Assembly (NCBI GenBank): GCA_036270475.1
Contig: DATBCN010000055.1
Location: 1-48,579 of the forward strand
Source: Candidatus Angelobacter sp.
Lineage (GTDB): Bacteria > Acidobacteriota > Terriglobia > Terriglobales > Acidobacteriaceae
Direction of reading: 5' to 3'
Length of the DNA: 48,579 nucleotides
Numbering within the stretch: position 1 is the first letter of the stretch; every line of letters begins with the position of its first letter. Positions 15,273 through 36,103 of this stretch are shown here, piece by piece. The notes under the pieces are model-generated. The model made no database searches, was not told the origin of the DNA, and was given only the letters and a program-made list of their open reading frames with translations. The translations under genes and the position numbers were made by a program.

Positions 15273-16976
15273 ATGACGAAAACAGATGACCTCTTTTTTG
15301 CAGCCAAGAGATTGAGAGGAACGGTTATGGGCGCCATATACTTTTCTTGCGATCAGGAATCATTGTTCATGGGATTGTCAATATTGCTGCGCGGGATCTC
15401 TTATCCCAGCCAGGCGGGAGAAACCATTGCCTCATCGTTCGAATCGGCAGCTAGGGGGCTTGGCGCCGCCCGCGGTGGATTGTTTTTGGTTCGGCACCAC
15501 CCGTCCGCAACTCGTTTGGAAACGCTGTGTCATTATCAAATGAACCCACAACATATCCGTGCCATTGAGTACGGTACTGATTCTGAAGATGCTGCCACTA
15601 GCCGGATCTGGAAAATTTTCAGCCAATGGGATGCAGGAACAAGCTCCTGGAAGGCTGGACCAATCGAGAAGGCAGCACCCAACTTGTACGTCATTTGCAT
15701 TCCGATCATAGACCCGGTACTTGATTCACCCGTTGCTGTTTTGCATTTTGAAAAAGAGACTGAGAACAACCCAGAGTTTGAGGCGGTGGCAAAAGAGTGG
15801 ATCACTCCATACGCGCTTGCACTGGGGCAAATCCTGAACCTTGGCTTCTCATCCACACAGGTCGAGATCGAAAGCGATGGAAAAGCAATCGATATCAAAA
15901 CGCCCGAGAATGCTCCGGAGTTGATTGGTGTTTCGGTGCAGACCCAGGCCTTGCGCCAGGAGCTGCACGATATTCACATTCCCGCGGCAAGCGCCCCAGA
16001 TCCTGACCCGATTCTGATCCTGGGTGAAAAGGGAACGGGCAAGGACCTGATTACGCGATATATCTATGCCTACAGCACGCGCCGCAATCGGCCCTATGTG
16101 GCGGTGAATTGTGCGGAGATCACGGATGAACTGGCAAGCGCGCGTTTCTTTGGGCATAAAAAAGGCTCTTTTACCGGATCGCTGGCCAACGAGCCTGGGC
16201 TATTCAGAGCGGCCGACCACGGCGTGCTCTTTCTTGATGAGATAGGCGATCTCTCACTCAAAGCGCAGGGAACTTTACTGCGCGTGCTGGAGAACCGCAC
16301 TGTCGTCCCGCTTGGGGAAACCAGAGAACAGCGAATTGATGTGCAGGTGATTCTGGGGACCAACTGTGATCCAGACCGCGCTGTTGCCGAGGGACGTATG
16401 CGTCCTGATCTTCTTGATCGTTTTCGCACTCAGGCAATCCGGCTGGCCCCGTTACGCGAACGGCCATGGGACATTCCCGCGCTGGTCCGTCATTTCATCG
16501 CTTACAACGAGAAGCGCACCCAGAAAAAAATCCTCAGCCTCCACGCCGATGTGCTGAAGATGCTGGTCGGGTATTCCTGGCCGGGCAACGTGCGGGAGTT
16601 GGCAAGGATATGTTCCTTGCTGGTTACGCATGTGAAGTCTGGCAGCCCAATTGATGCAGCGCTGTTCAGCCGGGTCATTCCTAATATCGGGAAGGAAGAA
16701 TGGAACCCTAAGGCTGGCGCAATGCTCGTGGGGAACGTTCCTATGCGGGAAGCCCTGGAAACCTTTGGACGTGAACTGATTCTTGCTCGTCTGCGGCAGC
16801 ACAACTGGAACATCAAGTCAGCGCGCGAAAGCCTTGGCCTTCCCAAAACAACGTTTCATCGTTATACACGCGCCCTGGGAATCGCCGGTTCCGTTCGCGA
16901 CGAACTAGCAGGAATAGAACAGTTCCCATATCCGACAAAACCGTTTGCTGGCGGAGGAATTCCCGCACTCAGTTGA
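15273..16976 (+). CDS. Sigma-54-dependent transcriptional activator (N-terminal sensory domain, AAA+, C-terminal HTH); no receiver domain
   Basis: 567 aa. Walker A is GEKGTGKD, the GAFTGA variant is GSFTGS, and Walker B is LFLDEIGDL. WPGNVREL and the HTH NIKSARESLGLPKTTFHRY are present. The ~230-aa N-terminal region looks GAF-like (tentative). Confidence 0.85.
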   Translation: MTKTDDLFFAAKRLRGTVMGAIYFSCDQESLFMGLSILLRGISYPSQAGETIASSFESAARGLGAARGGLFLVRHHPSATRLETLCHYQMNPQHIRAIEYGTDSEDAATSRIWKIFSQWDAGTSSWKAGPIEKAAPNLYVICIPIIDPVLDSPVAVLHFEKETENNPEFEAVAKEWITPYALALGQILNLGFSSTQVEIESDGKAIDIKTPENAPELIGVSVQTQALRQELHDIHIPAASAPDPDPILILGEKGTGKDLITRYIYAYSTRRNRPYVAVNCAEITDELASARFFGHKKGSFTGSLANEPGLFRAADHGVLFLDEIGDLSLKAQGTLLRVLENRTVVPLGETREQRIDVQVILGTNCDPDRAVAEGRMRPDLLDRFRTQAIRLAPLRERPWDIPALVRHFIAYNEKRTQKKILSLHADVLKMLVGYSWPGNVRELARICSLLVTHVKSGSPIDAALFSRVIPNIGKEEWNPKAGAMLVGNVPMREALETFGRELILARLRQHNWNIKSARESLGLPKTTFHRYTRALGIAGSVRDELAGIEQFPYPTKPFAGGGIPALS

Positions 16977-20550: not shown

Positions 20551-20868
20551 GCCTGATGTCTATAGTTTAGCGGCTCTACTGAATCAGTTTGAATCCAGAG
20601 AGGATTCGTGCCATGCGCTCACCTGAGCGTTGCCCATGATTTTGATCCGCAAATAACCCTGCAAGCTCTGTCTTAAAGCAGATGACAGGCAACTGCGCAC
20701 TATCGCACTGACTCTGCGATATGCCAGACAGTGAGTGGTTCGACCCAAAACTGAACCTTTAGCCGTTTGGAAGATATTAATGGCCCTAAAACTCCTCGCC
20801 GTGTGATCCATTGTTATTACTGCATTTGATAGCAAACGATGATATGAACCCTGCCCCGACCGATAAAA

Positions 20869-21561
20869 ATGTCGTCAGCTATGCGCGATGAACAGATGGC
20901 TAGCCAAAGGTCCTCTTCCGTCCCTCTCTGCCCGCAAGACCGCATTTCCGTTCTTCTTGTAGACGATCATGGTCTGGTGCGCCGGGGCTTTAGGCGCATC
21001 TTGGAAGATAGTAAGGACATTTGGGTTATTGGCGAAGCGAGCGATGGGGCCGCCGCGGTCAAGATGGTTCAGGAGCTAGCGCCTCACGTAGTCATCATGG
21101 ATTGCGCCCTTCCCGGAATGAGCGGCCTTACGGCGACAAATCGAATCGTGGAAATATCAACGGGGACGAACGTGCTGATGTTGAGCATGCATGCCGAAGA
21201 TACCTGGGTGCGCAAGGCACTCAGCGTTGGTGCGCGAGGTTACATTCTGAAGAATGCTGTTGATTTGGACCTGGTGACGGCGGTGAAGAAAGTGGCAGGG
21301 GGAGAAATAGTACTTGACCCGCAGCTTTCCCGCCGGTGCGTCTTGAAGGGCGAAAGGAACCATGGTCTTACCCACAGGGAGTTGCAAATTCTCCAACATA
21401 TAGTAGCAGGCAAATCAAACAAAGAGATCGCCGGGCAGCTCGATATCAGCGTGAATACGGTGGCGGTTCATCGCGCCAACATGATGCAGGCTCTGGGAAT
21501 CCACAATGCCGCGGGACTTGTCGCTTACGCAATTCGGAATGGCTTGATCAATGTTCTGTAG
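20869..21561 (+). CDS. Response regulator, NarL/LuxR family (REC + LuxR-type HTH)
   Basis: 230 aa. The receiver is ISVLLVDDH...VVIMDCALPGMSG. The HTH is LTHRELQILQHIVAGKSNKEIAGQLDISVNTVAVHRANMM. The exact start among M1, M5 and M10 is uncertain. Confidence 0.85.
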   Translation: MSSAMRDEQMASQRSSSVPLCPQDRISVLLVDDHGLVRRGFRRILEDSKDIWVIGEASDGAAAVKMVQELAPHVVIMDCALPGMSGLTATNRIVEISTGTNVLMLSMHAEDTWVRKALSVGARGYILKNAVDLDLVTAVKKVAGGEIVLDPQLSRRCVLKGERNHGLTHRELQILQHIVAGKSNKEIAGQLDISVNTVAVHRANMMQALGIHNAAGLVAYAIRNGLINVL

Positions 21562-21957
21562 TTGTCCGGCGCATGTTTCTCTGGAGCCAGGTTTTGCGGT
21601 ATGGTTAAAATTTCTCAAGTGCTCCAAATTTTTGCGTCTCCATATATCGCGGTGCTGATTGTGTGTCGCGCAAAGTTGATTGTCAATTTCATCGCGAGGT
21701 TCCATTTCGGGATTTGTTAGCCGGATATTGCCGCTAATGTCCATGCAGAATAGAGTTATGTACGAAACTTCCCGAATGTGGCTTCGGATTTCGCGCCAAC
21801 GAACTACGAATCGCAGTCTGAAAACCGCCGCTGAAGACAATGCATCGATCAGCAAAAACGCATCGGCGCAAATTATCAGGCTGTGAGTGTCTTTAGTAAT
21901 ATCAATCCGCTAGTTTTGTCAGCTAGTAAATATTAAGCTCTCCAGCTTCAAACATCG

Positions 21958-21978: not shown

Positions 21979-22028
21979 TTTAGCGTTGCAGTGCAAAAAT
22001 CAGAATTCAATTTGTGGAGCAGAAGACA

Positions 22029-22283
22029 ATGGATGTTGATGCCGTCAGGACCAAGATTAAACAAGCAATTCACCGTGTAGCTGGCATTGAAGTGGCCGCC
22101 ATTTCTGATACGGCCTCTTACGAAACTGACCTTGGATTAGACTCGCTTTCCATTCTTGAGATCTCCGTGGAGTTGGAAAACCAGTTCAAGTTCCATGCTT
22201 CTGACGAAGAATTGTCTTCAATCCATACCGTGCAAGATGCTGTGGATCTTGTGACAAAGAGAGTGGGCGTGGAAGTAGCATGA
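22029..22283 (+). CDS. Acyl carrier protein
   Basis: 84 aa from ATG 22029, with GGAG 9 nt upstream. The ORF track starts at GTG 22014. The phosphopantetheine attachment motif is DLGLDSLSILEI. The stop overlaps the next gene's start (ATGA). Confidence 0.8.
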   Translation: MDVDAVRTKIKQAIHRVAGIEVAAISDTASYETDLGLDSLSILEISVELENQFKFHASDEELSSIHTVQDAVDLVTKRVGVEVA

Positions 22284-23524
22284 TGGGACCTGCAGCAATT
22301 GCCGTTACCGGGCTTGGGGTTGTGACCTCAATCGGCGTGGGATGCGAACCATTCTGGGATTCACTTTTGGCGGGCCGAAACGGTTTTACCCGTGTAAAGA
22401 GCTTTGACACGGTTGGCTACTCAGTCCACATGGGCGCTGAAATCCAGGATTTTTGCCCTGAAGACTACGTTTTGGAAATAGATCCGGCCGCGATTGGACG
22501 CACGTCGCAGTTCGCAATCGCTGCCTCACGTCTTGCCCTGTTGGATGGCGGTCTAGATCTCTCAGAGATCGATAGAGCCCGTGTGGGCGTTTGTATAGGA
22601 ACTACGTCAGGAGAGCCCCACAGCATTGAGCGCTTTAACGATCAGTATGTGCAGGGCAGCATGAACAAGATTGGCAGCGAGTTTCTGCATGGATATCCTT
22701 GCCACGTAGTTCCGTTTCACGTGGCAAAGGAATTCGGCTTGGGCGGGGAAGTAATGATGATCCCGACCGCTTGCGCCGCCGGAAATTACGCGATTGCACA
22801 TGCGGGTGATCTTCTTTGTGCGGGCAAGACCGACTTTATGCTTGCTGGCGGGGCTGATTCATTTTCCCGTATCACTTACACCGGTTTTGCCAGACTCGGT
22901 GCCATCGCGCCTGAAGTTTGCCAGCCCTTCGATCTCAATCGTAAAGGGATGATTCCCGGCGAAGGTGCGGCCGTGCTTCTCCTTGAGCGCCGCGATCAAG
23001 CCCAGGCGCGTGGTGCCCGGATCTATTGTGAAGTTGCTGGTTACGGTCTCTCCTGCGACGCTCATCATATGACAGCGGCTCATCCGGAGGGGGAGGGAGC
23101 TGCCCGGGCTATTCGAATGGCGATGCAGCACAGCAACATTCGACCGGACGAAATCGACTACATAAGCGCCCATGGGACCGGAACGCCAACGAATGATCGC
23201 CTGGAAACCATCGCAGTCAAGAGAGCATTCGGCAAACGTGCATATGACATTCCAATGAGTTCCGTTAAATCAATGCTGGGACACACAATGGGAGCTGCCT
23301 CCGCGATTGAAGCCGCGGTTTGCGCGCTGGCCATCACCCATGGCTATATTCCACCCACCATGCATTGGCAGCAAAAAGACAGTGAATGTGATCTGGATTG
23401 CGTTCCAAATATCGCGCGCAAGCACAAGGTAACGGTAGCGATGAACAATGCGTATGCATTTGGCGGAAATAATTCCTCTTTGGTACTCGCCGCAAGTACC
23501 AATTCGAACCGTGAACGCGCATGA
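22280..23524 (+). CDS. Beta-ketoacyl-ACP synthase (FabF/KS-alpha type, catalytically complete)
   Basis: 414 aa. The Cys-His-His triad contexts are PTACAAGNYAI, SAHGTGTPTND and KSMLGHTMGAAS. The start overlaps the ACP stop, and the stop overlaps the next start. Confidence 0.9.
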   Translation: MMGPAAIAVTGLGVVTSIGVGCEPFWDSLLAGRNGFTRVKSFDTVGYSVHMGAEIQDFCPEDYVLEIDPAAIGRTSQFAIAASRLALLDGGLDLSEIDRARVGVCIGTTSGEPHSIERFNDQYVQGSMNKIGSEFLHGYPCHVVPFHVAKEFGLGGEVMMIPTACAAGNYAIAHAGDLLCAGKTDFMLAGGADSFSRITYTGFARLGAIAPEVCQPFDLNRKGMIPGEGAAVLLLERRDQAQARGARIYCEVAGYGLSCDAHHMTAAHPEGEGAARAIRMAMQHSNIRPDEIDYISAHGTGTPTNDRLETIAVKRAFGKRAYDIPMSSVKSMLGHTMGAASAIEAAVCALAITHGYIPPTMHWQQKDSECDLDCVPNIARKHKVTVAMNNAYAFGGNNSSLVLAASTNSNRERA

Positions 23525-24756
23525 ACAAACTAGTGGTCATCACGGGTGTCGGACTTATTTCCAGGCTGGGAGACTCGTCTGCTCTGCTTCATCGGGACTT
23601 ATGCGCCGGATCAAATCGTCTGGATGAAATTACAGAATATGAAACACATGGTTTCGGTTCCCAGCCGGGAGGGAGTATTTCTGCGTTCGCACCTGAAACG
23701 TATCTGAGTGGCCGGGCTCTGAGGCCCTTGGATAGAACTGGGAGGCTCTTTGCGTCCGCTGCCAAGCTCGCTCTGGAAAGCAGCGGCTGGAGCGCCGGGT
23801 ATTTAGCCACCAACGATGTGGGAGTGGTGTTGGGCACAATGTTCGGCAGTATGCATACAATTTCGCAATTTGACCGGCAAGCTCTCATCGATGGCCCATC
23901 GTGCGTTAGTCCCATGGATTTTTCCAACACGGTCATCAATTCCGCAGCCGCACAAACTGCAATCTGGCACAAACTACGGGGGATCAATTCCACAATTGCT
24001 TCGGGCGCGACTTCAGGGCTTATGGCGATTGGGTATGCGGCTGATCTCATCCAGAGCGGACGTCAGTCCGCGGTGCTGGCTGGTGGAGCTGATGAATTCT
24101 GTTTTGAATCTTTTTGCGGTATGGCGCGCGCCGGACTTTTGCGTGGTTCCTCCAGCCAACGCGGATGCGCGGTGCCTTTTGATGAGCGGCGTACTGGTAT
24201 GACGTTAAGTGAGGCTGGAGCGCTGCTCGCGCTCGAAGACTGGGAATCGGCGAAAGCGCGCGGCGCGAATGTGCTGGGTGAAATACGCGGGCATGCCAAC
24301 GCCTACAATCCAGCAGGAAACCAGAATGGGCGAGGCCCAGACGCGATTATTCGCGCCATGCAGGGAGCGCTGGAGTCTGCCCGAATGTCGACTGGAGACA
24401 TCGACTGCATAAGCGCGGCTGCGAATGGGAGTCCCGTGGATGACAAGAATGAGGCGATGGCGATCCATGCAGTTTTCAATAGCCATGCGAACAGCGTTCC
24501 GCTCACGGCGATCAAATCAGTGCTTGGCGAAACTCTTGGCGCGGCCGGCGCATTACAGGCGATTGATTTTGTAGAGTCAATGCGAACGTCTTTGCTTCCT
24601 GGGATCGCTGGATTAGGAGAGGTTGATGAGGAAGCGGCGTCTTTGAACCTTTGCCGCCAGCCGACCCTGCTGAATGTGCGTTCCGCATTGATTAACAGTG
24701 TCGGTTTTGATGGCCACGCCTGCTCGCTCATTATTACAGCACCGCCGCAAGGATAA
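23521..24756 (+). CDS. Ketosynthase-like partner lacking the catalytic triad (KS-beta / chain-length-factor-like)
   Basis: 411 aa with a thiolase fold. The segment equivalent to TACxxG reads TIASGATSG with no Cys. The two His motifs read SAAANGSPVDD and KSVLGETLGAAG (His to Asn/Ala and to Glu). The ATGA overlap with the KS gene fits a heterodimer. Confidence 0.8.
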   Translation: MNKLVVITGVGLISRLGDSSALLHRDLCAGSNRLDEITEYETHGFGSQPGGSISAFAPETYLSGRALRPLDRTGRLFASAAKLALESSGWSAGYLATNDVGVVLGTMFGSMHTISQFDRQALIDGPSCVSPMDFSNTVINSAAAQTAIWHKLRGINSTIASGATSGLMAIGYAADLIQSGRQSAVLAGGADEFCFESFCGMARAGLLRGSSSQRGCAVPFDERRTGMTLSEAGALLALEDWESAKARGANVLGEIRGHANAYNPAGNQNGRGPDAIIRAMQGALESARMSTGDIDCISAAANGSPVDDKNEAMAIHAVFNSHANSVPLTAIKSVLGETLGAAGALQAIDFVESMRTSLLPGIAGLGEVDEEAASLNLCRQPTLLNVRSALINSVGFDGHACSLIITAPPQG

Positions 24757-24760
24757 TTTC

Positions 24761-25996
24761 ATGGGAGGAACTTTGTTTACCGTAAACGAACTGGCTTGCT
24801 CGCTTCTCGACCGCCATGGCCTCACGCCCCAATTGGTGCCACGGCTGGGCGCGGAAGCTTACGGGAAACCTGCCATCACCAAACGGCGTGAATGGATTGA
24901 AAACAAAACCGGGGGAAACCTTACACATGTCGGGTCTTACTCCGTTCCCAGCGAGCAGATGCGCGGCAACATTGAAAATCCGATTGGCGCAGTCCAAGTT
25001 CCTCTTGGAATTGCCGGCCCCCTGGCTATTCGAGGCGCCTATGCCCAGGGCATCTTTTATGTTCCCATGGCCACCACTGAAGGCGCTCTCGTCCGTTCAT
25101 ATGAACGCGGCATGGTTACGCTTACCCGGGCGGGCGGCGCCATCACGCGTGTTTACCAGGATGAAAACCGCGTATCGCCGGTTTTTCTTTTTAGCGGCGT
25201 GGCCTCTGCCCATGATTTTGCCAATCAGATAACTCAAGAGTTCAACCGAATCAAAGAAGAGGCTGAGTCGACCACGGCCCATGGAAAATTGCTCCGTCTG
25301 GATTGTGATCCCATCGGAAAAGAAGTGATAGTTACTTTCTGCTATTCCACGGCGGACGCTCACGGCATGAACATGATCGTTAAGGCCACTGAAAGGGCCT
25401 GCTGCTGGATCCTGAAAAATATGCATGCGCAGGATTTCTATTTATTCAGTGGACTGAGCTCTGAAAAAAGAGGCAGTGGGGCATTACTAAGTGGAGGAAA
25501 AGGCAAGAAAGTAATCGCGGGAGCAACGCTCTCTGCTGACTTGTTAAAAAACTATCTGCATACCACACCGGCACAGTTAGTGGACCTTTGGCACCATACC
25601 GTACTGGGGCATTTGCAAGGGAACGCAATAGGATACAACGCTCATTATGCAAATGGATTAGCGGCCATATTCATCGCCTGCGGACAAGACGTGGCCAATA
25701 TCCTGAACTCAGCGGTGGGAATAACCAATTTTGAATTGATGGATGATGGGCAAGCCTATGTAAGCGTAACACTGCCATCATTGACGGTTGGGACCGTAGG
25801 CGGTGGCACGGGCTCTGGCACAAGCTACGAATGTTTGCGAATGTTGGGGGCTGCGGGTAACGGTGGTGCGCTGAAGTTGGCGGAAATTGTGGCTGCCACG
25901 CTGCTTGCTGGAGAGATATCCATGGCTGCGGCAATTGGCAGCCATGAATTCACGCAGGCCCACGATAAATACGGACGTAATAAACCCGAGCCTTAA
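24761..25996 (+). CDS. Class I HMG-CoA reductase homologue (catalytic domain only, soluble)
   Basis: ATG 24761 has AAGGA 7 nt upstream. The ORF track extends it to 24698. Motifs are ENPIGAVQVPLGIAGPL, MATTEGALVRS, DAHGMNM and LTVGTVGGGTG. It starts 5 nt after the KS-beta stop. Confidence 0.85.
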   Translation: MGGTLFTVNELACSLLDRHGLTPQLVPRLGAEAYGKPAITKRREWIENKTGGNLTHVGSYSVPSEQMRGNIENPIGAVQVPLGIAGPLAIRGAYAQGIFYVPMATTEGALVRSYERGMVTLTRAGGAITRVYQDENRVSPVFLFSGVASAHDFANQITQEFNRIKEEAESTTAHGKLLRLDCDPIGKEVIVTFCYSTADAHGMNMIVKATERACCWILKNMHAQDFYLFSGLSSEKRGSGALLSGGKGKKVIAGATLSADLLKNYLHTTPAQLVDLWHHTVLGHLQGNAIGYNAHYANGLAAIFIACGQDVANILNSAVGITNFELMDDGQAYVSVTLPSLTVGTVGGGTGSGTSYECLRMLGAAGNGGALKLAEIVAATLLAGEISMAAAIGSHEFTQAHDKYGRNKPEP

Positions 25997-26071: not shown

Positions 26072-27109
26072 ATGTCACCTAATTCAGAGTTAGAGCCGAT
26101 CATCGCCAGCGGATACTCTGAAGGTCGCGCGCGATTTGGCGATTTAGGCTTGGATCCTGAGGTGTTCGCTAAACGCATTGAGGCCATCATCCAAAAACAT
26201 CTGGGGGCCAACCCACCCATGGAAGCATCTGTCAGCTTTGCGAAGAGCTTACACAGCCGAGATTTGTATCTGGCCACGGCATGCGCTCAACACAGCCTTT
26301 ATCCCGCTACAGATCCCGCGACTGGTGTTCCTTCAGAGCATGCCGGGCGGGCCTGGAAAATGCTGGAGTCAACGTATAGAGGATTTATCCGTGATCTTGC
26401 CCGCTATTTCTTTCGCAAAGGTTTTATTTCCCAGGATCTTGCTGACAACATTCTCGCTGATCTTTTTCTTCCTGATCGTTCCGGGACCAGCCGCATTGTG
26501 TCCTATGATGGCCGGAGCTCGTTAAGCACCTGGCTGAGAGTGGTGATTTCAAACCGTGCGATCAATGCCAAGCGTTGTAGCGCAACAATGCAAACTGTTG
26601 AAATCCTGGCGGACATACCGGATGAGCCTGCTCTGGAAAGAATTGACTCCGGTTTGAGGACGAAACGGTATCAGGAACCACTCAAGGATTCTTTGACATT
26701 GGCATGTCGGCGTTTGACTCTGCGTGAACGCCTGATCTTGCTTTGGCGATATGAAGATGGTTTGCAATTAGGGCAAATAGCGCGTTTATTGGACATTCAT
26801 CAGTCGAATGTAACCCGGCAGCTTGACCGGCTGCAAGGTAAGCTTCGTGAACATGTCATTGAGATCCTGTCGACGCGCCACGGGCTCAGTCTCGATGCGA
26901 TTGAAGAATGCTTGAAAGATATTGTAGAGAATCCGCAAACAGTGGCTATTCTGGAGTTCATCAAAGGTAAACAAGGCCCTTCACAGGCATTGCAGGCAAC
27001 GCTGCCTGTTCCGGGCGCAAGGCAGGGCAATACTTTTGCGGCAAAGCCACCGGAATCAGATCCCGGACGGGCCGAGTGCAACAATGGGCGATGGGGAAAA
27101 TATAAGTAG
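26072..27109 (+). CDS. Sigma-70 family (ECF-like) RNA polymerase sigma factor with N- and C-terminal extensions
   Basis: 345 aa. Region 4 is LTLRERLILLWRYEDGLQLGQIARLLDIHQSNVTRQLDRLQGKLRE. The region 2-like segment is STWLRVVISNRAINAKR. Confidence 0.7.
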   Translation: MSPNSELEPIIASGYSEGRARFGDLGLDPEVFAKRIEAIIQKHLGANPPMEASVSFAKSLHSRDLYLATACAQHSLYPATDPATGVPSEHAGRAWKMLESTYRGFIRDLARYFFRKGFISQDLADNILADLFLPDRSGTSRIVSYDGRSSLSTWLRVVISNRAINAKRCSATMQTVEILADIPDEPALERIDSGLRTKRYQEPLKDSLTLACRRLTLRERLILLWRYEDGLQLGQIARLLDIHQSNVTRQLDRLQGKLREHVIEILSTRHGLSLDAIEECLKDIVENPQTVAILEFIKGKQGPSQALQATLPVPGARQGNTFAAKPPESDPGRAECNNGRWGKYK

Positions 27110-27507: not shown

Positions 27508-27786
27508 ATGTTGCTTCTGGCGGAGAGGTTCGTGTTTCCAATGGAAATATTCTCGGGAATTGCCGGAGATGTTGGACCGAAATCTGGGAAGGCCAGATAT
27601 GTAGAGGCCACTCAAGGTCCGCATTTAAGCGATGAGGATGTTGCAGCGTTTGTTGACAGTAACCTTCTTGCCTGGCAGACAAGGGCGATGCTTTTGCACC
27701 TTACGCACTGTCCAAGATGTAGAAAGATCCTTAGCGAAGTTGTACTAAGTCAATCTGCTGTTCATAACCCAGATCCCCAGAAGTAG
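27508..27786 (+). CDS. Short soluble anti-sigma factor candidate (zf-HC2 / ZAS motif)
   Basis: 92 aa, or 81 aa from ATG 27541. LSDEDVAAFVDSNLLAWQTRAMLLHLTHCPRCRKIL matches the anti-sigma N-terminal domain with H-x3-C-x2-C. There is no TM segment. Confidence 0.5.
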   Translation: MLLLAERFVFPMEIFSGIAGDVGPKSGKARYVEATQGPHLSDEDVAAFVDSNLLAWQTRAMLLHLTHCPRCRKILSEVVLSQSAVHNPDPQK

Positions 27787-27934
27787 TTTTATTTTGTCCC
27801 GCCTGAGAATCATCTGAGCAAATCCCATTTACCCAACTGTCTAAGTGCAATGTAGCTACTTTTCCGTTCCGGTGTGGGGATTGCTCTCAGCGTTTGTGTT
27901 GGCGATCTTCTGAACCAGCAGGAGTGATTGTCCC

Positions 27935-29482
27935 GTGTCCAGACGTTTCCGCGGGTTGCGTGAAGACCCAGAAAGACGGTACGACTGTGTCATCATCGGG
28001 GCCGGAGTTGGCGGACTGCTAACCGCCAATCTCCTGGGCCGTTCTGGGCTGAAAGTCCTTTTGGTTGAGCAGCACTTCATGGTGGGCGGCTATTGCAGCA
28101 CATTCCGGCGAGGTGGATATACCTTTGATGCGGCTACCCATTTTTATCCTCTGCTAGGTAACCCAGCCACCATGACCGGTGCTTTATTGGCCGAGTTGGA
28201 TGTTACAACAGAATGGGTCAAGATGGACCCGGTGGATTCATTCCACTTCCCAGATGGCTCACGCTTCACGGTACCGGCCAAGTTTGACATCTATCTGGCA
28301 AGGCTCAAAGAGGAATTCCCTGAAGAGTCCGCGAACATCGACCGCTTTTTTACGCTCGTCCGAAAAACATACCTTTTGGGACTCATGCACTATTTCCGGC
28401 AGGTAGACACAAAGCGGATTGCCCCCTACCAGCATCTTACGATCCGCGATGTGCTGAATAAATATTTCCGCAGTGAAAAACTTAAGCTGGTGCTTACCGG
28501 TGACATCGGCCATTGGGGATCACCGCCATCCAAAACTTCTTTTGTTTTTGATTCCATGCTGCGTCTAGCCTATTTTTTGGGCAACTATTATCCCCGCGGT
28601 GGATCGCAAGTGTTTGTCGATGAGTTAGCACAGCGCTTTGAAGAAGCGGGTGGCCACATTCTGATGAACTCAACGGTAAAGCGGATACTCGTCCGCAATA
28701 ACACCGCGGTTGGGGTTGAAATCGAGACGGGAAGCGCTCGCAAACGGCTCTTAAAGCAGGTGATGGCAGGCATAGTCATTTCCAATGCTGATCTTCGGTT
28801 GACGTTGGAAGGGATGATCGGTGCGGAGTTTATTGATCCTGTCTACTTGGCCACGGTCCGCGAGATGCGCCCTACCCATGCCTGTTTTCTCACCCATTTA
28901 GGACTGAAAAATATCTCCCTTGATGAATTACGAAGAGCTGAAGGATATCACTGGAGTTCTTGGGATTCGGAAAATGTTGCAACACATGCATTCAAGGTGT
29001 TTCTACCGACCGGGTACGATCCCAGCCTCGCCCCGCCTGGTGGCCAGATCATCATTGTGCAGAAACTTACAGAGATTGACTATGGCTCCATGCAGGATTG
29101 GGCGATGCACAAGGCCGGGGTGGAAGCTTACATTATGTCTTCTTTGGAGAAATGTTTGCCGGGGATCGGAGGCAAGGTCGCCGTCAGATTGAGTGCCACT
29201 GCTCAAACATCCCATCGCTACACGCTGAATCACCATGGCGCCATGCTGGGATGGGCGATGTCTCCTGATCAATTGGGTGAGAAGAGGCCAGATATACAAA
29301 GCCCTTTCCGCAATTTGTATTTCATTGGGCACTGGACGAGACCTGGCGGCGGAATTACACCGGTGATGATTTCCGCGATGCAAGCAGTCAAGTTAATTCT
29401 TGGCGGCGAACCACAAGCCGGCCTTCCGATTGAAGTGGATCACTTGGCGCCAGAAACAAAAGAGGTTTTGCCGAGATTGTGA
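27935..29482 (+). CDS. FAD-dependent oxidoreductase, phytoene desaturase (CrtI)-like family
   Basis: 515 aa. The dinucleotide fold is YDCVIIGAGVGGLLTANLLGRSGLKVLLVEQHFMVGG. The C-terminal FIGHWTRPGGGI is typical of the CrtI/amine-oxidase family. The GTG start has AGGAG 10 nt upstream. Confidence 0.8.
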   Translation: MSRRFRGLREDPERRYDCVIIGAGVGGLLTANLLGRSGLKVLLVEQHFMVGGYCSTFRRGGYTFDAATHFYPLLGNPATMTGALLAELDVTTEWVKMDPVDSFHFPDGSRFTVPAKFDIYLARLKEEFPEESANIDRFFTLVRKTYLLGLMHYFRQVDTKRIAPYQHLTIRDVLNKYFRSEKLKLVLTGDIGHWGSPPSKTSFVFDSMLRLAYFLGNYYPRGGSQVFVDELAQRFEEAGGHILMNSTVKRILVRNNTAVGVEIETGSARKRLLKQVMAGIVISNADLRLTLEGMIGAEFIDPVYLATVREMRPTHACFLTHLGLKNISLDELRRAEGYHWSSWDSENVATHAFKVFLPTGYDPSLAPPGGQIIIVQKLTEIDYGSMQDWAMHKAGVEAYIMSSLEKCLPGIGGKVAVRLSATAQTSHRYTLNHHGAMLGWAMSPDQLGEKRPDIQSPFRNLYFIGHWTRPGGGITPVMISAMQAVKLILGGEPQAGLPIEVDHLAPETKEVLPRL

Positions 29483-31150
29483 ATGGCGGAGTTGTTGCAA
29501 AAACCCTTAGCGAGCCTATCTAAAGTGCTGCGGATAACAATACTCAGTACCGAAGGCAATATACCGGCAAGCAGTCTGGCAAAGGAGCTGAAAGCTACCG
29601 ACGAGAGAGCCAGTGTCGTCCTGCTGGAAGATAGCCATTGCGCAATTCAAACAAATCAGTCTGGCAGTTATCTTTATATTCCATCCTTGATAGATGCGGA
29701 TGCGATGGTGCCCGACTTGCGGGAAGCGGAGCGGGTCTTCCGCAATCTGGCGCCAGGGGAAAGCAGAAAAATCATTGTGCTATCCAGTGCGCTGATCTAT
29801 GGAACTGGCGCGGGCCGGCAGGCCCTGGTGGACGAAGATTATAGCCCGCCGCGGCGTAACGAGCAGGTCATTAGTAGCACCTGGGCTGCTTTGGAAAAGC
29901 TGGCATGTCAATATCTAGGCCAACAAAATAAGGTTACAATTCTGCGCCCCGTAACACTGGTACCTTCACAAGCGTGGATAAGCAGGATATTAACAGGCCG
30001 CTTCGCTCCAACTTTGCTTGGCTACGATGCCACCCTGCAGTTGCTCAGTCCCAGTGATTTGGCGGGCGCGGTTCGTTGCGTGCTTCTTCACGATTCTCCC
30101 GGGACTTTCAATGTTGCGCCTGATTGCGCTGTGCCTACGCATGCCGCGATCCGGATTGCTGGAGCCTCGCGTATTTCCTTGCCACGGGCCTTGCGACGGC
30201 TGCACAAACAAGCTGAGGTCCTCGATTATCTGAGATATCCGTGGACGGTCTCCAATCAAAAGATCAAAAGTGTTCTGGGGTTTAAGCCTGCAAAGTCGAG
30301 TCTTGCTGCCCTGCTAGAAGCTTGCCACCGCCGTTGTGATGTTGTGCCGGAGCCGCGCTTTGATGAATTCGGAATGGACCCCGACTACATCAGATTTTAC
30401 GGAAAGACCCTGTTCAAGTTTCTTTCTGACGTTTACTGGCGCATTGAAGAACAAGGTGTGGAACACATACCTGCAAGCGGCCGCGGAGTGATGGTAGGGA
30501 TGCATCGCGGTTTTATGCCTTGGGATGGTGTGATGGCATTGTATCTGCTGGTGCAGAGAATCGGCCGCTTTCCTCGGTTCCTGATTCATCCCGGCCTATT
30601 AAAATTTCCATTTCTTGCGAATTTTATGACCAAGCTTGGCGGTGTCATTGCATGCCAGGCGAGCGCCGACCGCATTCTGGAAAGCGACGAACTGCTAGGC
30701 GTTTTTCCCGAGGGGATAGAAGGAGCATTTACTCCTTACCGTGACGCCTATAAGCTGCAGAGCTTTGGGCGTAACGCCTTCGTTAAAATGGCTCTTTTGC
30801 ACCGGGCGCCAATCATTCCCTTTGTGACAGTAGGCAGCGCAGAAATTTTCCCGATCCTGGGAAAGATTGAATCCAAATTCTGGCAGCGGTATGCCGAGTG
30901 GCCTTTTATTCCGCTCACGCCAACCTTTCCACTCTTACCATTGCCCTTGCCGGCTAAATGGCACACAGTCTTTCTTCCCCCTTTGCATGTAGAAAAAATT
31001 TATGCGCCTGAAGCTGCCCGAGACCGCGCGGTGGTGAAGGCCATCAGCCTTGAGGTGCGTACGCGCATGCAGCAGGCCATTGACGAGATGCTGGGCCGAC
31101 GGCGATCCATATTCTGGGGTTCGGTGTTCAAACCGGAGAGCTGCGCATGA
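29483..31150 (+). CDS. Fusion protein: degenerate extended-SDR (epimerase/dehydratase-like) domain + lysophospholipid/glycerol-phosphate acyltransferase (PlsC-type) domain
   Basis: 555 aa, starting immediately after the previous stop. The N-terminal half has the epimerase fold pattern (VLSSALIYG, FNVAPD, VLGFKP). It lacks GxxGxxG (ILSTEGNIPAS) and YxxxK (STWAALEKL). The C-terminal half carries the acyltransferase blocks GMHRGFMPWD and FPEGIEG. Confidence 0.7.
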   Translation: MAELLQKPLASLSKVLRITILSTEGNIPASSLAKELKATDERASVVLLEDSHCAIQTNQSGSYLYIPSLIDADAMVPDLREAERVFRNLAPGESRKIIVLSSALIYGTGAGRQALVDEDYSPPRRNEQVISSTWAALEKLACQYLGQQNKVTILRPVTLVPSQAWISRILTGRFAPTLLGYDATLQLLSPSDLAGAVRCVLLHDSPGTFNVAPDCAVPTHAAIRIAGASRISLPRALRRLHKQAEVLDYLRYPWTVSNQKIKSVLGFKPAKSSLAALLEACHRRCDVVPEPRFDEFGMDPDYIRFYGKTLFKFLSDVYWRIEEQGVEHIPASGRGVMVGMHRGFMPWDGVMALYLLVQRIGRFPRFLIHPGLLKFPFLANFMTKLGGVIACQASADRILESDELLGVFPEGIEGAFTPYRDAYKLQSFGRNAFVKMALLHRAPIIPFVTVGSAEIFPILGKIESKFWQRYAEWPFIPLTPTFPLLPLPLPAKWHTVFLPPLHVEKIYAPEAARDRAVVKAISLEVRTRMQQAIDEMLGRRRSIFWGSVFKPESCA

Positions 31151-32787
31151 GGGCGATTACGAGTGCGCGCCGATTGGTGCGTATTTTTAGAATCGTAGGC
31201 TGGCATGCGGTCAGCCATGCGTTGCACTCGCCTTTAAGGCATTGGCCAAAGCCGGCAGCAAAGGTCCTTGGTGAAGAAGTGTCTGGACCGGTCAGACTTC
31301 GGCTCGCGATCGAGGAGATTGGCGGAACGTTCATTAAGTTTGGCCAGATGCTTGCGATGCAATCTGATCTGTTGCCATTGGAATATTGCAGGGTCCTGTT
31401 CACATTGTTCGACCAGGTACCGCCATTTAGCTACCAGGAAGTGGAGCGAATGTTTGTAGAGGACTTAGGACAAAAGCCTGCACAGATATTTACCTCCTTT
31501 GATTTAACTCCAATCGCAACTGGTTCCATAGGCCAGGTACATATTGCGATGCTGGGAAAGCAGAAAGTCGCTGTGAAGGTGAGGCGTCCGACAATCGCCC
31601 GTGATTTCGCGGCTGACATTGTGTCGATGAAGATCGTCTCCGGGCTGGTGAAGCTGCTTCGCATCAAATGGCTCTATTGGGTCGTAGCTCCGATTGAGGA
31701 ATTCATTGCCTGGACCCAGGAGGAGCTCGATTTCAGGCGGGAAGCGCACTACATTGATGAATTAGGCCGCAATGCCAGGGACAACCGGTTTGAGAAAGTC
31801 CCAACCGTTTTTTGGAGCTGCACAACGGCGCGAATCCTGACAGCAGAATTTCTGGATGGGAGCACGATCTCTGAGTATTTACGTGATCGCGATTCTGGCA
31901 TAGTCCGTCTGCCGAAAGATTTTAACGCCGAGCTTTTTGCCGGCCGGCTTATTGACAATTTCCTGGGCGATGCTTTTCGCCATGGGATGTTCCACGCGGA
32001 CCTTCATCCTGGCAATTTGATGATCCTGGGGGGAAATGTTGTGGGATATGTCGATTTTGGAATTTCAGGCGTCCTTAGCCGTTATTCGCGTAGGCATTTG
32101 ATCGCGATGACCCTCGCCTATGCACAGGGAAACCTGGATGCCATGTGCGAATCGTTCTTTCGCATTTCCACATTCGCAAGTAATGCTAATCCCGCCGGCT
32201 TTCGGCAGGGAATCGTTGCTGCGTCCGCAGGGTGGTATGGAAGCGGCGCCGGTGAATCGAGGCTGCGTAAAAGCATTACTTCCATCATGCTTGATCTGCT
32301 GATCATTTCCAAAAATAACGGCGTATGGCCGCAGCGGGACGTGATCAAATACATCCGTTCCGCCATTGCCCTGGATGGCTTGATCAAGACTTTTGCTCCG
32401 GGCGTGGACGTAGGCCGCCATCTAGAACAGGCATGCGTACGGCACATCAAGTGGGATTCAGTCAGGAACATCACTTCCTCCAGTGTTGTGATTGGTTCGT
32501 TAGGTGGACTGACTCGTTTGGCCCGCGATGGCTTCCTTCGGGCGTTCGCGATGTTGGGGCAGTACGGTAAAAGACTGCCCAAAGTGCCTTTGCGCCTAAC
32601 CGGTGGTGTTACGAAACGGCGGCTACACGCTGCCCTGCAGTTTGCCTGGATAGTGTTTTGTCTTAGGTTGTCTGCCATGGCGGACAGGAAGGGGTTGGCG
32701 ATCTCTCACATTCATCTAGCCGGCCTGCTGTTGCCGTTCGCCATTTCAATCGTTATGCAGCGGGCGCTCCAACATGTGAGGGCTTAA
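31147..32787 (+). CDS. UbiB/ABC1 (AarF-domain) atypical kinase with C-terminal TM segments
   Basis: 546 aa with an ATGA overlap with the previous gene. Motifs are FIKFGQMLAMQSDLLPLEY, GSIGQVHIA, VAVKVRRP, FHADLHPGN and VDFG. Confidence 0.85.
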   Translation: MRAITSARRLVRIFRIVGWHAVSHALHSPLRHWPKPAAKVLGEEVSGPVRLRLAIEEIGGTFIKFGQMLAMQSDLLPLEYCRVLFTLFDQVPPFSYQEVERMFVEDLGQKPAQIFTSFDLTPIATGSIGQVHIAMLGKQKVAVKVRRPTIARDFAADIVSMKIVSGLVKLLRIKWLYWVVAPIEEFIAWTQEELDFRREAHYIDELGRNARDNRFEKVPTVFWSCTTARILTAEFLDGSTISEYLRDRDSGIVRLPKDFNAELFAGRLIDNFLGDAFRHGMFHADLHPGNLMILGGNVVGYVDFGISGVLSRYSRRHLIAMTLAYAQGNLDAMCESFFRISTFASNANPAGFRQGIVAASAGWYGSGAGESRLRKSITSIMLDLLIISKNNGVWPQRDVIKYIRSAIALDGLIKTFAPGVDVGRHLEQACVRHIKWDSVRNITSSSVVIGSLGGLTRLARDGFLRAFAMLGQYGKRLPKVPLRLTGGVTKRRLHAALQFAWIVFCLRLSAMADRKGLAISHIHLAGLLLPFAISIVMQRALQHVRA

Positions 32788-32798
32788 CCGTAGGCGAA

Positions 32799-34415
32799 AT
32801 GGCAGGCGCTGGTAGTCCGGTAAGCCAAATCGAGCGGAAAGGGAAACAGGCGCGAACACGAATGCTCCAAAGCAGGGAACAATACAGGCCGATTAACAGG
32901 CATAGTGGGATGGGCGTGTCTGGTCTTGCCCACCAAGCCAAAGAGGAAACGGTTGAGCAACGGGCAGCGGACCTCCGGCGGCTTCTGCAGGAAAGCGGCC
33001 CACTATTCTCAAGTTTCGCGCTTTATCTTTCTTCCAGGATTGATCTGTTACCCGCCGAGTATTGCCGCGAGTTAGCTTGTGTAGCTGACTCCTCGCCAGC
33101 GCGCTCTCTCTTGGATGTGGAGCGGGAGATGCTGGCTGGATTGGGTGGCATATTCCATGGGATCTTCAGAGCGTTTGAGCCAGTGCCATTCAGGGTAAGT
33201 TTATTGGACCAGACTCATGCTGCGATATTAGCCAACGGCGATAAAGTCACGGTCTGCTTCCTTCGTCCGGAGTACGCAGTTATTGGCAGCGCAAATCAGA
33301 TTGTTTCGCTCATCCGCGAGAAGCCATTTTGTGCTTTCGGCCCTGAGTTGGCGGATGACGCTATGCTCACGGACTTTGCTGCTGCATTGCAGAGGTCGGT
33401 CAACTTGCAAATCAGAGGGCAGGCGGTGGAAGGGCGTGCGAATCCGGGAGAGTTCTCAAACAGAAAACCGGTTTACAAGGTCTATCACGAACTTTCTGGA
33501 AAAAGGGTTTTAACTGCCGCAGCCGTTGGAGAAAACACCCTGTGTCAACTCATATGCGAACAACAAAGAAACTTGCCACTCTTAGCGCGCCACGTCTGCC
33601 GTGCATGGCTCAGGGAAGCGCTGTATGGCCGGTATGTCCCTGTGGATCCAAGGCCAGGAAACATCATTGTGTTGGGGCAGACAGATTTTATCTTCGCGGG
33701 CAATGAGTTTGCAGAGGTCCCATTGCGCGCAAGAGAGAACCTCCGTCATTACCTGTCTGCGACCCTTGAGGACGACCCTGACAGAGCGGCGCTACATTTG
33801 CTGCAAGAGATGCATCCGCCAAGAGGCGGTTTGAAAGACGCTGGTGAATTCCGAAGCCGGTTCAGGCAGGCAGCCTATTTTGGCGCGCTTGAGCCTGTCT
33901 TGGGGACAGACACAAATGCCCTGGCGCAACTTATCTTCCAACACTGGAAAACCGCTCTCAGTTTTGGGTACGCACCAACGCCGCATCTGCTGGTTTTCTA
34001 TAGAGGATTATTTTCCGTGGCACGAGTGGCCCGTGAATTAGCTCCAGCGGAAGACCCGTTGCGCGACGGCACGGAGGAACTGGATGCCGACATGATGTTT
34101 GAACAGCTCACCGACATTACTGGAACCACCTACTGGTCTGAGAGCGCGGACAAGTTCGCTACGGCAATGATCAACCTTCCGCAGACCCTGGATGAAGCGT
34201 TAAACCGCGGAAGTAGCCTAGAGCTTGACAACCATTTGGCGCCCGCTCCGGAGCATCCCGCGAGCAAACGCGCAAAGCCCATTGCGATGCTGGTGCTTTT
34301 TATCTCGGCAATCATCTTCATTTTTCAAACTGGTACAAATGGCTGGATGGAGCAAACCGTGGTGCTTGCGCTGATGCTCGCGGGGTTAGCCGGCTTACAA
34401 ATGTTGGTAGATTGA
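32799..34415 (+). CDS. Degenerate UbiB/ABC1-like paralogue (probable pseudokinase) with C-terminal TM segments
   Basis: 538 aa with the same domain order. The KxGQ box reads FSSFALYLSSRIDLLPAEY. The VAVKVxRP lysine is Cys (VTVCFLRP). HADLHPGN reads VPVDPRPGN. DFG reads FAGNEF. Confidence 0.7.
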   Translation: MAGAGSPVSQIERKGKQARTRMLQSREQYRPINRHSGMGVSGLAHQAKEETVEQRAADLRRLLQESGPLFSSFALYLSSRIDLLPAEYCRELACVADSSPARSLLDVEREMLAGLGGIFHGIFRAFEPVPFRVSLLDQTHAAILANGDKVTVCFLRPEYAVIGSANQIVSLIREKPFCAFGPELADDAMLTDFAAALQRSVNLQIRGQAVEGRANPGEFSNRKPVYKVYHELSGKRVLTAAAVGENTLCQLICEQQRNLPLLARHVCRAWLREALYGRYVPVDPRPGNIIVLGQTDFIFAGNEFAEVPLRARENLRHYLSATLEDDPDRAALHLLQEMHPPRGGLKDAGEFRSRFRQAAYFGALEPVLGTDTNALAQLIFQHWKTALSFGYAPTPHLLVFYRGLFSVARVARELAPAEDPLRDGTEELDADMMFEQLTDITGTTYWSESADKFATAMINLPQTLDEALNRGSSLELDNHLAPAPEHPASKRAKPIAMLVLFISAIIFIFQTGTNGWMEQTVVLALMLAGLAGLQMLVD

Positions 34416-34468
34416 AGCTGCATCGTTGCTGCCGAAGTTAGAACTTCAGCACCAAGGGAGGCGTAAGA

Positions 34469-35943: not shown

Positions 35944-35973
35944 GGGCCGGGGCAAGCGCAATGCTTGCCCGGC
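35944..35973 (+). terminator. GC-rich hairpin directly after the dioxygenase stop (terminator-like, no clear U-tract)
   Basis: GGCCGGGGCAAGC-gcaat-GCTTGCCCGGCC forms a 12-bp stem with one bulged G, 3 nt after TGA 35939-35941. Confidence 0.4.
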
Positions 35974-36103
35974 CTTGCTGCAAATCACGACCCACTTCTT
36001 GTCTATGAAAGCAGATATCGAATGCTTTCAGCGGTCTGCTCTGCAATGCAGGAGCAACCCGGAGCATGAGTGCTCCGGCCCGTCGATCGCTCAGGAGACG
36101 CAG

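Follow-up and report, generated by a model that had tools for sequence, protein, structure and literature searches.

The nearest known system to the locus described here is Cluster I of the anammox bacteria, the putative ladderane cluster (KustE3603-3608 in Kuenenia; amxACP-amxFabZ-amxFabF2-amxFabFmut-PDH-B12 radical SAM in Brocadia; PDB ID: 9S5H and 9S5I). The two FabF homologues of Cluster I pair as a heterodimer resembling a ketosynthase (KS) and its chain-length factor (CLF), and the structure of the Brocadia fulgida amxFabF2/amxFabFmut heterodimer has been deposited as 9S5H (bioRxiv 10.64898/2026.05.19.726425). This heterodimer primes synthesis by decarboxylation of malonyl-ACP (ACP, acyl carrier protein), and its substrate tunnel is shaped by residues from both subunits (bioRxiv 10.64898/2026.05.19.726425). 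Ladderanes themselves are known only from anammox Planctomycetes (bioRxiv 10.64898/2026.05.19.726425). We have analysed a contig of 48,579 nucleotides from Candidatus Angelobacter sp. of the Terriglobales, Acidobacteriota (assembly GCA_036270475.1, contig DATBCN010000055.1; the whole stretch is called the window hereafter), which carries an operon for an ACP, a KS, a CLF-like partner and a homologue of 3-hydroxy-3-methylglutaryl-CoA (HMG-CoA) reductase (HMGR). The best reading of the locus, from its sequence and that of its relatives, is a biosynthetic cluster of the Terriglobia that is conserved and co-regulated and would make a specialised lipid or a polyketide-like compound. Within it the HMGR-like enzyme is, on balance, probably a thioester reductase outside the mevalonate pathway whose function is tied to the ACP system.

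The ACP-KS-CLF-HMGR operon

Pfam identifies four co-directional genes on the + strand within positions 22014-25996, encoding an ACP (PP-binding, 8.5e-12), a KS (ketoacyl-synt N domain, 4e-40; C domain, 2.5e-38), a second KS-fold protein (N domain, 2.8e-24; C domain, 1.2e-19) and an HMGR homologue that matches PF00368 (HMG-CoA_red) from position 2 to 368 of the 368 profile positions (2.4e-105, 353 bits). An earlier note on this DNA had described four packed genes of these kinds, joined by two ATGA overlaps and a 5-nt junction. All four are present as named and the two overlaps are found at the ACP/KS junction, GCATGATG, and the KS/CLF junction, GCATGAAC. The last spacer is one nucleotide shorter than was claimed, the CLF stop codon TAA being followed by TTTC and then by ATG 24761, which leaves 4 nt. 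The ACP, the KS, its triad-less partner and the soluble class I HMGR homologue are translationally coupled. Two start codons had to be corrected. The span was said to begin at 22014, but GTG 22014 is disfavoured as a start; for the ACP the most likely start codon is ATG 22029, which has GGAG 8 nt upstream and fits the length of the homologues (84 aa). GTG 24698 is rejected as the start of the HMGR homologue in favour of ATG 24761, since the resulting 411 aa are in line with homologues of 404-412 aa.

The dedicated ACP (22029-22283, +; 84 aa) carries the DSL motif with Ser39 and scores below each of the NCBIfam AcpP equivalog cut-offs. The active KS (22280-23524, +) has the complete triad Cys165, His298 and His335. 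In the catalytically dead, CLF-like partner (23521-24756, +) all three catalytic positions are replaced, Cys by Ala163 in TIASGATSG, His by Ala300 in SAAANGSP and His by Glu337 in LGETLG. These motifs had been read in the same way in the earlier note, as had the hallmark motifs of the soluble class I HMGR domain (24761-25996, +). The note had further stated that ketoreductase, dehydratase, HMG-CoA synthase and mevalonate-pathway genes are lacking in the window, and our Pfam scan of the 48.6 kb agrees: it shows no ketoreductase, dehydratase or enoyl reductase, and no HMG-CoA synthase, thiolase, GHMP kinase or other mevalonate-pathway gene. No mevalonate-pathway genes lie within +/-10 kb of the HMGR gene in three Pfam-annotated related loci (L006, L007 and L010) either.

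The best PDB match of the KS is 9s5h_B (484 bits), followed by Iga11 (6kxd, 324 bits), and that of the CLF is 9s5h_C (245 bits), the next match having 183 bits. Compared with the Brocadia proteins, the KS is 53% identical to amxFabF2, to which it appears orthologue-like, and the CLF is 36% identical to amxFabFmut, the second catalytic His being replaced by Glu in both partners. The residues that shape the tunnel are largely conserved, among them Ala164, Phe203, Met337 and Phe394 in the KS (compared with amxFabF2) and Phe135, Thr138 and Val139 of amxFabFmut in the CLF (within PMDFSNTV). From the identities to the crystallised pair and the conserved tunnel residues we infer that the KS and CLF of the window would form a physical heterodimer with a chain-length-controlling tunnel. 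The first three genes had been called a KS/CLF-type module, an assignment that is upheld here and sharpened, as the pair is closest to the anammox amxFabF2/amxFabFmut heterodimer.

The similarity to Cluster I extends beyond this pair. In the Brocadia locus (L008) the gene order is ACP, FabZ, KS, CLF, PDH and B12-radical SAM, and the CrtI-like protein encoded at 27935-29482 of the window is 34% identical to Brocadia PDH over its full length (286 bits), its matches to the CrtD and CrtI structures in the PDB reaching only 85 and 77 bits. Similarity of the window ACP to amxACP is marginal (39% identity over 54 residues, E 6e-4). Because its KS, CLF and PDH are homologous to Cluster I proteins, the Terriglobia cluster is a relative of the putative ladderane cluster. 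The cobalamin-dependent radical-SAM enzyme, present in L008, is absent from the window and from the related loci. A dedicated FabZ was not found either, there being no FabA/FabZ domain in the window, and a MaoC dehydratase is seen near some relatives only and not in the window.

The HMGR-like enzyme

The best structural relative of the HMGR-like enzyme in the PDB is the HMGR of Methanothermococcus thermolithotrophicus (6hr7; 305 bits, E 4.5e-90), and public annotations name the protein HMG-CoA reductase (NADPH). Its score against the corresponding NCBIfam model, TIGR00533, is 326.3 bits and lies below the cut-off of 441.8. For a comparison by residue, 118 family members were aligned with the human, Arabidopsis and Methanothermococcus sequences from the PDB alignments, and human numbering is used throughout. 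The equivalents of Glu559, Lys691, Asn755, Asp767 and His866 (Glu107, Lys236, Asn298, Asp310 and His401 in the window) are invariant in 118/118 members, so that the hallmark catalytic residues are kept; the motifs ENxIG, DAxGMN and GTVGGGT are present as well. In class I HMGR, Arg590, Asp690 and Lys692 make polar contacts to the HMG moiety and Lys735 forms a salt bridge to its terminal carboxylate (PMC9500038). These are the positions at which the family departs from HMGR: Arg590 is replaced by Val or Ile in 111/118 members (Val138 in the window), Lys735 by His in 116/118 (His279) and Asp690 by Glu in all 118 (Glu235), while Lys692 is Arg or His family-wide (Arg237). Asn567 to Glu and Met655 to His are further family-wide replacements. 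Judged by this alignment, the enzyme appears to be catalytically intact with a changed substrate pocket.

Among 1.84 billion representative proteins, searched exhaustively, there were 3339 HMGR-like relatives, of which the best 150 representatives were placed in a neighbour-joining tree together with references. In this tree the window protein falls, together with P0264 and P0265, in a clade of 38 members, all of them with Val, Ile, Leu or Phe at position 590. This Arg590-less clade is separate from the 107 other sequences, 99 of which bear Arg590 and which include the human, Arabidopsis, Methanothermococcus and Flavobacterium HMGRs. The clade, the sub-cut-off TIGR00533 score and the three replaced HMG contacts all set the enzyme apart from the ordinary HMGRs, with which the earlier note had considered that it might cluster.

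The N-terminal residues 5-40 of the protein (24773-24880, including DRHGLTPQLVPRLG) gave PDB matches to TAL-effector repeats (E ~1e-8) with no individually significant stretch. This likeness is probably spurious and was discarded as the result of repeat-boosted matches to 'HGLTPQLV'.

Conservation of the linkage in related loci

The closest homologues of the HMGR-like protein are found in metagenome-assembled genomes of the Terriglobia (Acidobacteriota), namely Terriglobales, Candidatus Angelobacter and Candidatus Solibacter, and Holophagales. In reference genomes and long contigs the order ACP-KS-CLF-HMGR-(ECF-like sigma)-CrtI-like-acyltransferase-ABC1-ABC1-RPE65 recurs down to 60% HMGR identity (ECF, extracytoplasmic function), and it is held in L001-L003, L006, L007 and L010. 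A metagenome scan added 80 further family loci with 62-76% identity out of a total of at least 374 confirmed matches. We scored 86 related loci by tblastn with the window proteins, counting a locus for a given gene only where there was sufficient flanking DNA. CLF is found upstream of HMGR in 56/57 loci, over the range of 60-90% HMGR identity, KS in 48/49 and ACP in 42/46. Downstream of HMGR, the PDH-like flavoprotein is present within 3.7 kb in 38/40 loci, the acyltransferase within 9.5 kb in 23/24 and an ABC1 gene in 20/24; RPE65 lies within 10 kb in 9/24 and is adjacent in L010. There are two layouts, one with a sigma gene between HMGR and PDH (25/64 loci) and one with PDH directly after HMGR (39/64). 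The recurrence of the gene order among 86 independent loci argues that the arrangement has not arisen by chance, and the suspicion raised earlier that the KS-CLF-HMGR linkage might not be conserved in relatives is refuted by the CLF count.

A gene for a MaoC-type dehydratase is found directly upstream of the ACP gene on the same strand in L010 (6726-7181) and nearby on the opposite strand in L007 (2985-3455). It may be an optional dedicated dehydratase of the pathway.

Fusions and neighbourhoods of the HMGR fold

Some of the HMGR-like relatives adjoin or contain acyl-carrying partners of other kinds. Within the Arg590-less clade, the HMGR gene of P0265 (49% identity) starts 6 nt after an ACP gene in L009, that of P0293 (44% identity) follows in the order KS, ACP, HMGR in L012/L013, and P0267 is a 4HBT hotdog-HMGR fusion. 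A Pfam scan of the 83 nearest representatives among the 3339 relatives identified AMP-binding as an added domain in 7/83 and PP-binding in 4/83, the latter forming proteins of ~1000 aa with an adenylation-carrier-HMGR (A-T-HMGR) layout like that of carboxylic acid reductases. Acyl-CoA-binding (ACBP), 4HBT hotdog, AfsA hotdog and GHMP (mevalonate-kinase-type) domains are added in 1/83 each, APH-type kinase domains in 10/83 and PilZ in 15/83. Two of the A-T-HMGR proteins, P0284 (with Lys590) and P0297 (with Arg590), are placed among the Arg590-bearing sequences, outside the clade of the window. Their architecture suggests that a domain of the HMGR fold can take a thioester on a carrier as its substrate, and since the A domain already loads the carrier, the HMGR domain would work in the reductive direction in these proteins. 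The conserved linkage, the position of the enzyme outside the canonical HMGR groups and the relatives that adjoin ACP or KS-ACP genes all point the same way as the earlier note, which had proposed reductive release of a thioester-bound chain, and are consistent with thioester reduction outside the mevalonate pathway.

One AMP-binding - PP-binding - HMGR fusion of 1043 aa (L095, 8001-11132) has as neighbours GpsA (glycerol-3-phosphate dehydrogenase), PlsC-like and GPAT-like acyltransferases, a diacylglycerol-kinase-like gene and a zinc-dependent alcohol dehydrogenase, on a contig that carries archaeal-type translation genes (aEF-1beta and S2). Possibly this locus represents a glycerolipid module of an archaeon that reduces fatty acids. 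Fusions to PilZ (P0269, P0272 and P0273) or to a receiver domain (P0266, REC-HMGR) are seen in many Arg590-less HMGR-like proteins, and a HisKA_7TM sensor (GAF-HD or histidine kinase) follows the Arg590-less HMGR in L012 (9221-11299) and L096 (9769-12006). These associations hint at a link of the HMGR-like family to cyclic di-GMP or lipid signalling.

The second operon and its products

The genes at 27935-35941 belong to the same conserved, co-regulated cluster as ACP-KS-CLF-HMGR. The first of them encodes the CrtI-family FAD oxidoreductase homologous to Cluster I PDH (27935-29482, +). It is followed by a two-domain protein (29483-31150, +), in which Pfam, AlphaFold2 (AF2) and Foldseek together indicate a degenerate, epimerase-like domain of the extended short-chain dehydrogenase/reductase (SDR) type and a PlsC/DGAT-like acyltransferase domain (Pfam Acyltransferase, 3.3e-10; DAGAT, 1.7e-4). 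The AF2 model of the N-terminal domain has a pLDDT of 73.5 and its top Foldseek matches are all SDR epimerases with a probability of 1.0, the Pfam Epimerase match being sub-threshold. The Gly-rich and YxxxK motifs of this domain are not conserved in 34 homologues, and their loss, despite the extended-SDR fold, ruled it out as a real thioester reductase. Because the SDR-like domain is probably no reductase, the HMGR-like protein is the sole remaining candidate thioester reductase in the cluster.

Two ABC1-family proteins come next, a UbiB/ABC1 atypical kinase (31147-32787, +; Pfam ABC1, 1.4e-54) and a second, more divergent member (32799-34415, +; 4.5e-13) that is kept in L001, L007, L015 and other loci. 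The last gene (34469-35941, +) encodes an oxygenase of the RPE65 family, of the carotenoid/apocarotenoid-cleavage type (Pfam RPE65, 2.8e-88), with the Synechocystis apocarotenoid-15,15'-oxygenase as its best PDB match (142 bits). A GC-rich terminator-like hairpin can be read in the sequence right after the RPE65 stop codon, at about 35946-35977. Beyond it lies a small conserved open reading frame (36104-36502, +) with a probable start at ATG 36104 and AGGAG 7 nt upstream, which is also found near the cluster in L015, L021, L022, L025 and L056.

Elsewhere in the window there is a separate putative locus for a ribosomally synthesised and post-translationally modified peptide (11013-15016, +). 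It encodes a RamC_N-kinase-LanC protein of 896 aa, similar to class III/IV lanthipeptide synthetases, and then a second LanC-like protein of 459 aa, followed by a sigma-54 activator (15273-16976).

Regulation of the cluster

The motif GCAAAT-N14-TGTC occurs in four exact copies in the window against 0.17 expected, and 0/100 shuffles reach four. All four copies are on the + strand, intergenic and just upstream of transcription units of the cluster. The copy at 21868-21891, 162 nt upstream of the ACP start, is the likely promoter of the ACP-KS-CLF-HMGR operon, and that at 27818-27841 lies 117 nt upstream of the PDH-like gene. The remaining two are located ~220 nt upstream of a response-regulator gene (20649-20672) and upstream of the small conserved reading frame after RPE65 (35980-36003). 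A motif of this kind is present 122-162 nt upstream of ACP in 18/44 related loci, for a background of 0.019 per 400 nt, and also upstream of the PDH gene in L001, L002, L003 and others. The spacing is 14 nt, and a search with spacers of 15-18 nt misses the sites. A consensus scan for sigma-70 promoters and intrinsic terminators around the operon gave no enrichment over shuffles, and there are no Rfam families or tRNAs in the window.

The cluster also encodes candidate regulators. An ECF-like sigma factor of 345 aa (26072-27109, +; TIGR02937 ECF, 65.5 bits; Sigma70_r4_2) is encoded directly downstream of HMGR, as in 25/64 loci, and its gene is found upstream of ACP in L006, L031 and L033. A putative zf-HC2 anti-sigma factor (27508-27786, +; Pfam zf-HC2, 2.8e-4; weak NCBIfam anti-sigma matches) follows it and keeps this place behind the sigma gene in several loci. 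Given the shared motif and the sigma and anti-sigma genes within the cluster, we infer that the cluster is probably one regulon, the motif being an ECF-type promoter for the sigma factor at 26072-27109. A LuxR-type response regulator (20869-21561, +; Pfam Response_reg and GerE) is a neighbour of the cluster in one sub-lineage and lies upstream of ACP at 64-85% identity in L001, L007, L015, L019, L020 and L029.

Proposed pathway and alternative explanations

A pathway can be proposed from these genes. The dedicated ACP and the KS/CLF heterodimer would prime synthesis themselves with malonyl-ACP and then extend an acyl chain within the two-subunit tunnel. Ketoreduction and dehydration would presumably be borrowed from the housekeeping fatty acid synthase, with the MaoC dehydratase added in some relatives. 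The HMGR-fold enzyme, with its conserved Glu/Lys/Asp/His residues and NAD(P)H as the reductant, would then convert the phosphopantetheine thioester of an acyl-ACP, or possibly of an acyl-CoA, to the aldehyde. It would probably reduce the aldehyde further to the primary alcohol and so release the chain, acting through a pocket that seemingly no longer matches HMG. The products of the second operon (the PDH-like flavoprotein, the acyltransferase, the two UbiB-type proteins and the RPE65-type oxygenase) would tailor and deposit the product, plausibly by desaturation or isomerisation, esterification, membrane handling and oxidative cleavage of C=C bonds. Both operons would be driven by the ECF-type promoter motif, probably read by the sigma/anti-sigma pair of the cluster.

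Several observations weigh against this proposal. The literature searched holds no biochemical report of an HMGR-fold enzyme acting on acyl-ACP, and with neither ketoreductase, dehydratase nor enoyl reductase in the cluster of the window, its genes do not indicate the type of chain. An Arg at position 589 (Arg137 in the window) adjoins position 590, and together with His279 it could still bind a carboxylate, which would allow a dicarboxylic or HMG-like substrate. The A-T-HMGR relatives lie outside the clade of the window and speak for the capability of the fold rather than directly for that clade, and the tree that defines the clade is a midpoint-rooted neighbour-joining tree without support values, drawn from the best 150 representatives only. 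Finally, one related locus (L057, 7464-19007) keeps HMGR, two sigma-like genes, the acyltransferase, ABC1 and RPE65 without ACP, KS, CLF or PDH within 10 kb of HMGR. An adjacent KS/CLF is accordingly not needed for the HMGR-like enzyme to operate, or at least to be retained. The promoter-like motif is located directly upstream of HMGR in this locus.

This last arrangement would also suit an unlikely alternative, in which the KS/CLF product is transferred to CoA, or hydrolysed and re-activated, and the HMGR-like protein is a soluble fatty acyl-CoA reductase, an analogue of FAR, that supplies an alcohol to the acyltransferase for wax-ester-type or ether-type lipids. CoA thioesters are the natural ligands of HMGR, one relative is fused to an ACBP domain and the acyltransferase has DGAT-like features, all of which would fit such a route. 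However, thioesterase, acyl-CoA ligase and ACP:CoA transacylase are absent from the conserved cluster, and relatives are found directly after ACP or fused to a carrier domain. The chemistry of HMGR is reversible, and class II enzymes are oxidative in vivo. The HMGR-like enzyme might then run in the acylating direction, oxidising an aldehyde or alcohol with holo-ACP or CoA and so loading an unusual starter for the KS/CLF. Pfam shows no obvious starter-loading enzyme in the cluster, an aldehyde-generating RPE65-family oxygenase appears to belong to the same regulon, and adjacency to ACP fits loading equally well. We nevertheless regard loading as decidedly unlikely, as the anammox counterpart of the KS/CLF pair primes itself by decarboxylating malonyl-ACP, no partner is less conserved than RPE65 (9/24 loci within 10 kb) and the A-T-HMGR fusions make sense only reductively, even though they stand outside the clade of the window.

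The neighbours have an isoprenoid flavour, with members of the CrtI and carotenoid oxygenase families and UbiB, and this raises the question of whether the enzyme is an ordinary HMGR in a lipid operon, making, for example, isoprenoid precursors for a carotenoid-like product of the CrtI-like and RPE65-like enzymes. The strong full-length match to PF00368 with all catalytic residues, the 305 bits to archaeal class I 6hr7 and the public annotation as HMG-CoA reductase (NADPH) would agree with this. It is nonetheless very unlikely, because the HMG-contacting residues Arg590, Lys735 and Asp690 are replaced family-wide, TIGR00533 remains below its cut-off and the clade is apart from the canonical enzymes. 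Moreover, HMG-CoA synthase, thiolase, mevalonate kinase and other pathway genes are absent from the window and from the flanks of the annotated relatives, the gene is tightly coupled in translation to ACP-KS-CLF in ~98% of loci, and a GHMP kinase fusion occurs in only 1/83 of the nearest representatives. The KS, CLF and PDH of the locus have their closest known homologues among the Cluster I proteins, and automated detection of biosynthetic gene clusters by the anammox FabF-like genes might report it as a genuine cluster for ladderane lipids. That identity is hardly credible and was ruled out, since counterparts of the B12-radical-SAM enzyme and of amxFabZ are missing from the window and the related loci; the ACP is only marginally similar to amxACP, and ladderanes are confined, as far as known, to anammox Planctomycetes. 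A polyketide synthase (PKS) beta-branching cassette was likewise ruled out, there being no HMG-CoA synthase or ECH domain in the window or related loci, and an aromatic type II PKS was rejected on account of Ala163 at the Cys position of the CLF, where the signature residue would be Gln.

Reductive release by the HMGR-like enzyme is the reading that we prefer, the locus as a whole behaving as a type II KS/CLF system that would end in such a release. The earlier note had not recognised this gene combination from described clusters. That holds only in part: KS/CLF together with the flavoprotein is described in anammox Cluster I, while the pairing with HMGR was not found in the literature searched, where full texts gave no HMGR homologue paired with KS/CLF/ACP, with ladderane-type clusters or with reductive release. 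The novelty would lie in a new kind of release enzyme for a KS/CLF pathway and, within a well-known fold, in a new sub-family function.

Implications

A wider suggestion is more tentative and, to our mind, falls somewhat short of an even chance. HMGR-fold acyl-thioester reductases might form a large unrecognised class acting on carrier- or CoA-bound chains in at least three formats, namely after KS/CLF-ACP operons, after KS-ACP or ACP genes, and fused to adenylation-carrier didomains, once in an archaeal-looking glycerolipid neighbourhood. In the Terriglobia they would end a KS/CLF/PDH pathway shared with anammox Cluster I and, controlled by an ECF sigma factor, give a new lipid derived from an alcohol or aldehyde. 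If reductive release is correct, a second fold, that of HMGR, would join the enzymes known to free acyl chains reductively from their carriers, many proteins listed in databases as 'HMG-CoA reductase (NADPH)' would be mis-assigned, and a mevalonate pathway inferred from an HMGR-like gene in Acidobacteria and other phyla would be wrong.

The abundance of the family in soil metagenomes (at least 374 matches) suggests that the cluster probably specifies a lipid or metabolite common among Acidobacteria, with ECF control of the envelope, light or stress type. The presence of the KS/CLF/PDH trio without the radical-SAM enzyme constrains the role of this trio in anammox bacteria. Unlike anammox bacteria, the cluster would offer an expressible system amenable to knockouts. 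Because its hosts belong to an aerobic lineage with cultivable relatives among the Acidobacteria, it could, if the proposal holds, serve as a tractable stand-in for the first steps that have been ascribed to the making of ladderanes.

Comparison with known systems

The cluster shares with anammox Cluster I an active KS adjacent to a triad-less partner, a dedicated ACP upstream and a CrtI-like flavoprotein. It differs in that the window is devoid of the radical-SAM enzyme and of a dedicated FabZ and has an HMGR-fold enzyme directly after the CLF. It also adds the SDR-like/PlsC-like acyltransferase, two ABC1 proteins, the RPE65 oxygenase and the ECF sigma/anti-sigma pair. The Cys position of the CLF is Ala in the window but Val or Thr in the anammox partners, and the host is an aerobic soil acidobacterium as compared to the anammox planctomycetes that carry Cluster I.

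A discrete ACP and an active KS with an inactive partner, translationally coupled, are likewise features of the KSalpha/KSbeta systems of type II PKS, such as Iga11/Iga12 of ishigamide (6KXD) and the actinorhodin pair (1TQY). Iga11/Iga12 belong to the highly reducing type II, and Iga11 is the second-best PDB match of the window KS (324 bits). In contrast to the aromatic type II PKS, the window CLF has Ala and not Gln at the Cys position. No cyclase/aromatase, ketoreductase or dehydratase is conserved in the cluster, and the proposed release enzyme has the HMGR fold.

From class I HMGR (EC 1.1.1.34; 6HR7 and the human enzyme 1DQ8) the HMGR-like enzyme retains the whole catalytic-domain fold and the catalytic residues. 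It differs in its replaced HMG contacts, its score below the equivalog cut-off, its separate clade and its location in an ACP-KS-CLF operon without mevalonate neighbours.

Reductive chain release is otherwise the province of the SDR-type thioester reductases, which include the terminal R domains of non-ribosomal peptide synthetases and PKS, the carboxylic acid reductases with their A-T-R (adenylation-carrier-reductase) architecture, the fatty acyl-CoA/ACP reductases and the myxobacterial ElbD. The reaction proposed here would be of the same kind, with NAD(P)H delivering two or four electrons to a phosphopantetheine thioester to yield the aldehyde or alcohol. The A-T-HMGR fusions mirror the A-T-R architecture of the carboxylic acid reductases, and the combination of a reductase with a PlsC-type acyltransferase in the cluster echoes ElbD. 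Unlike these enzymes, however, the candidate reductase has the HMGR fold and not that of a Rossmann SDR, and the sole SDR-like domain of the cluster has lost its cofactor and catalytic motifs.

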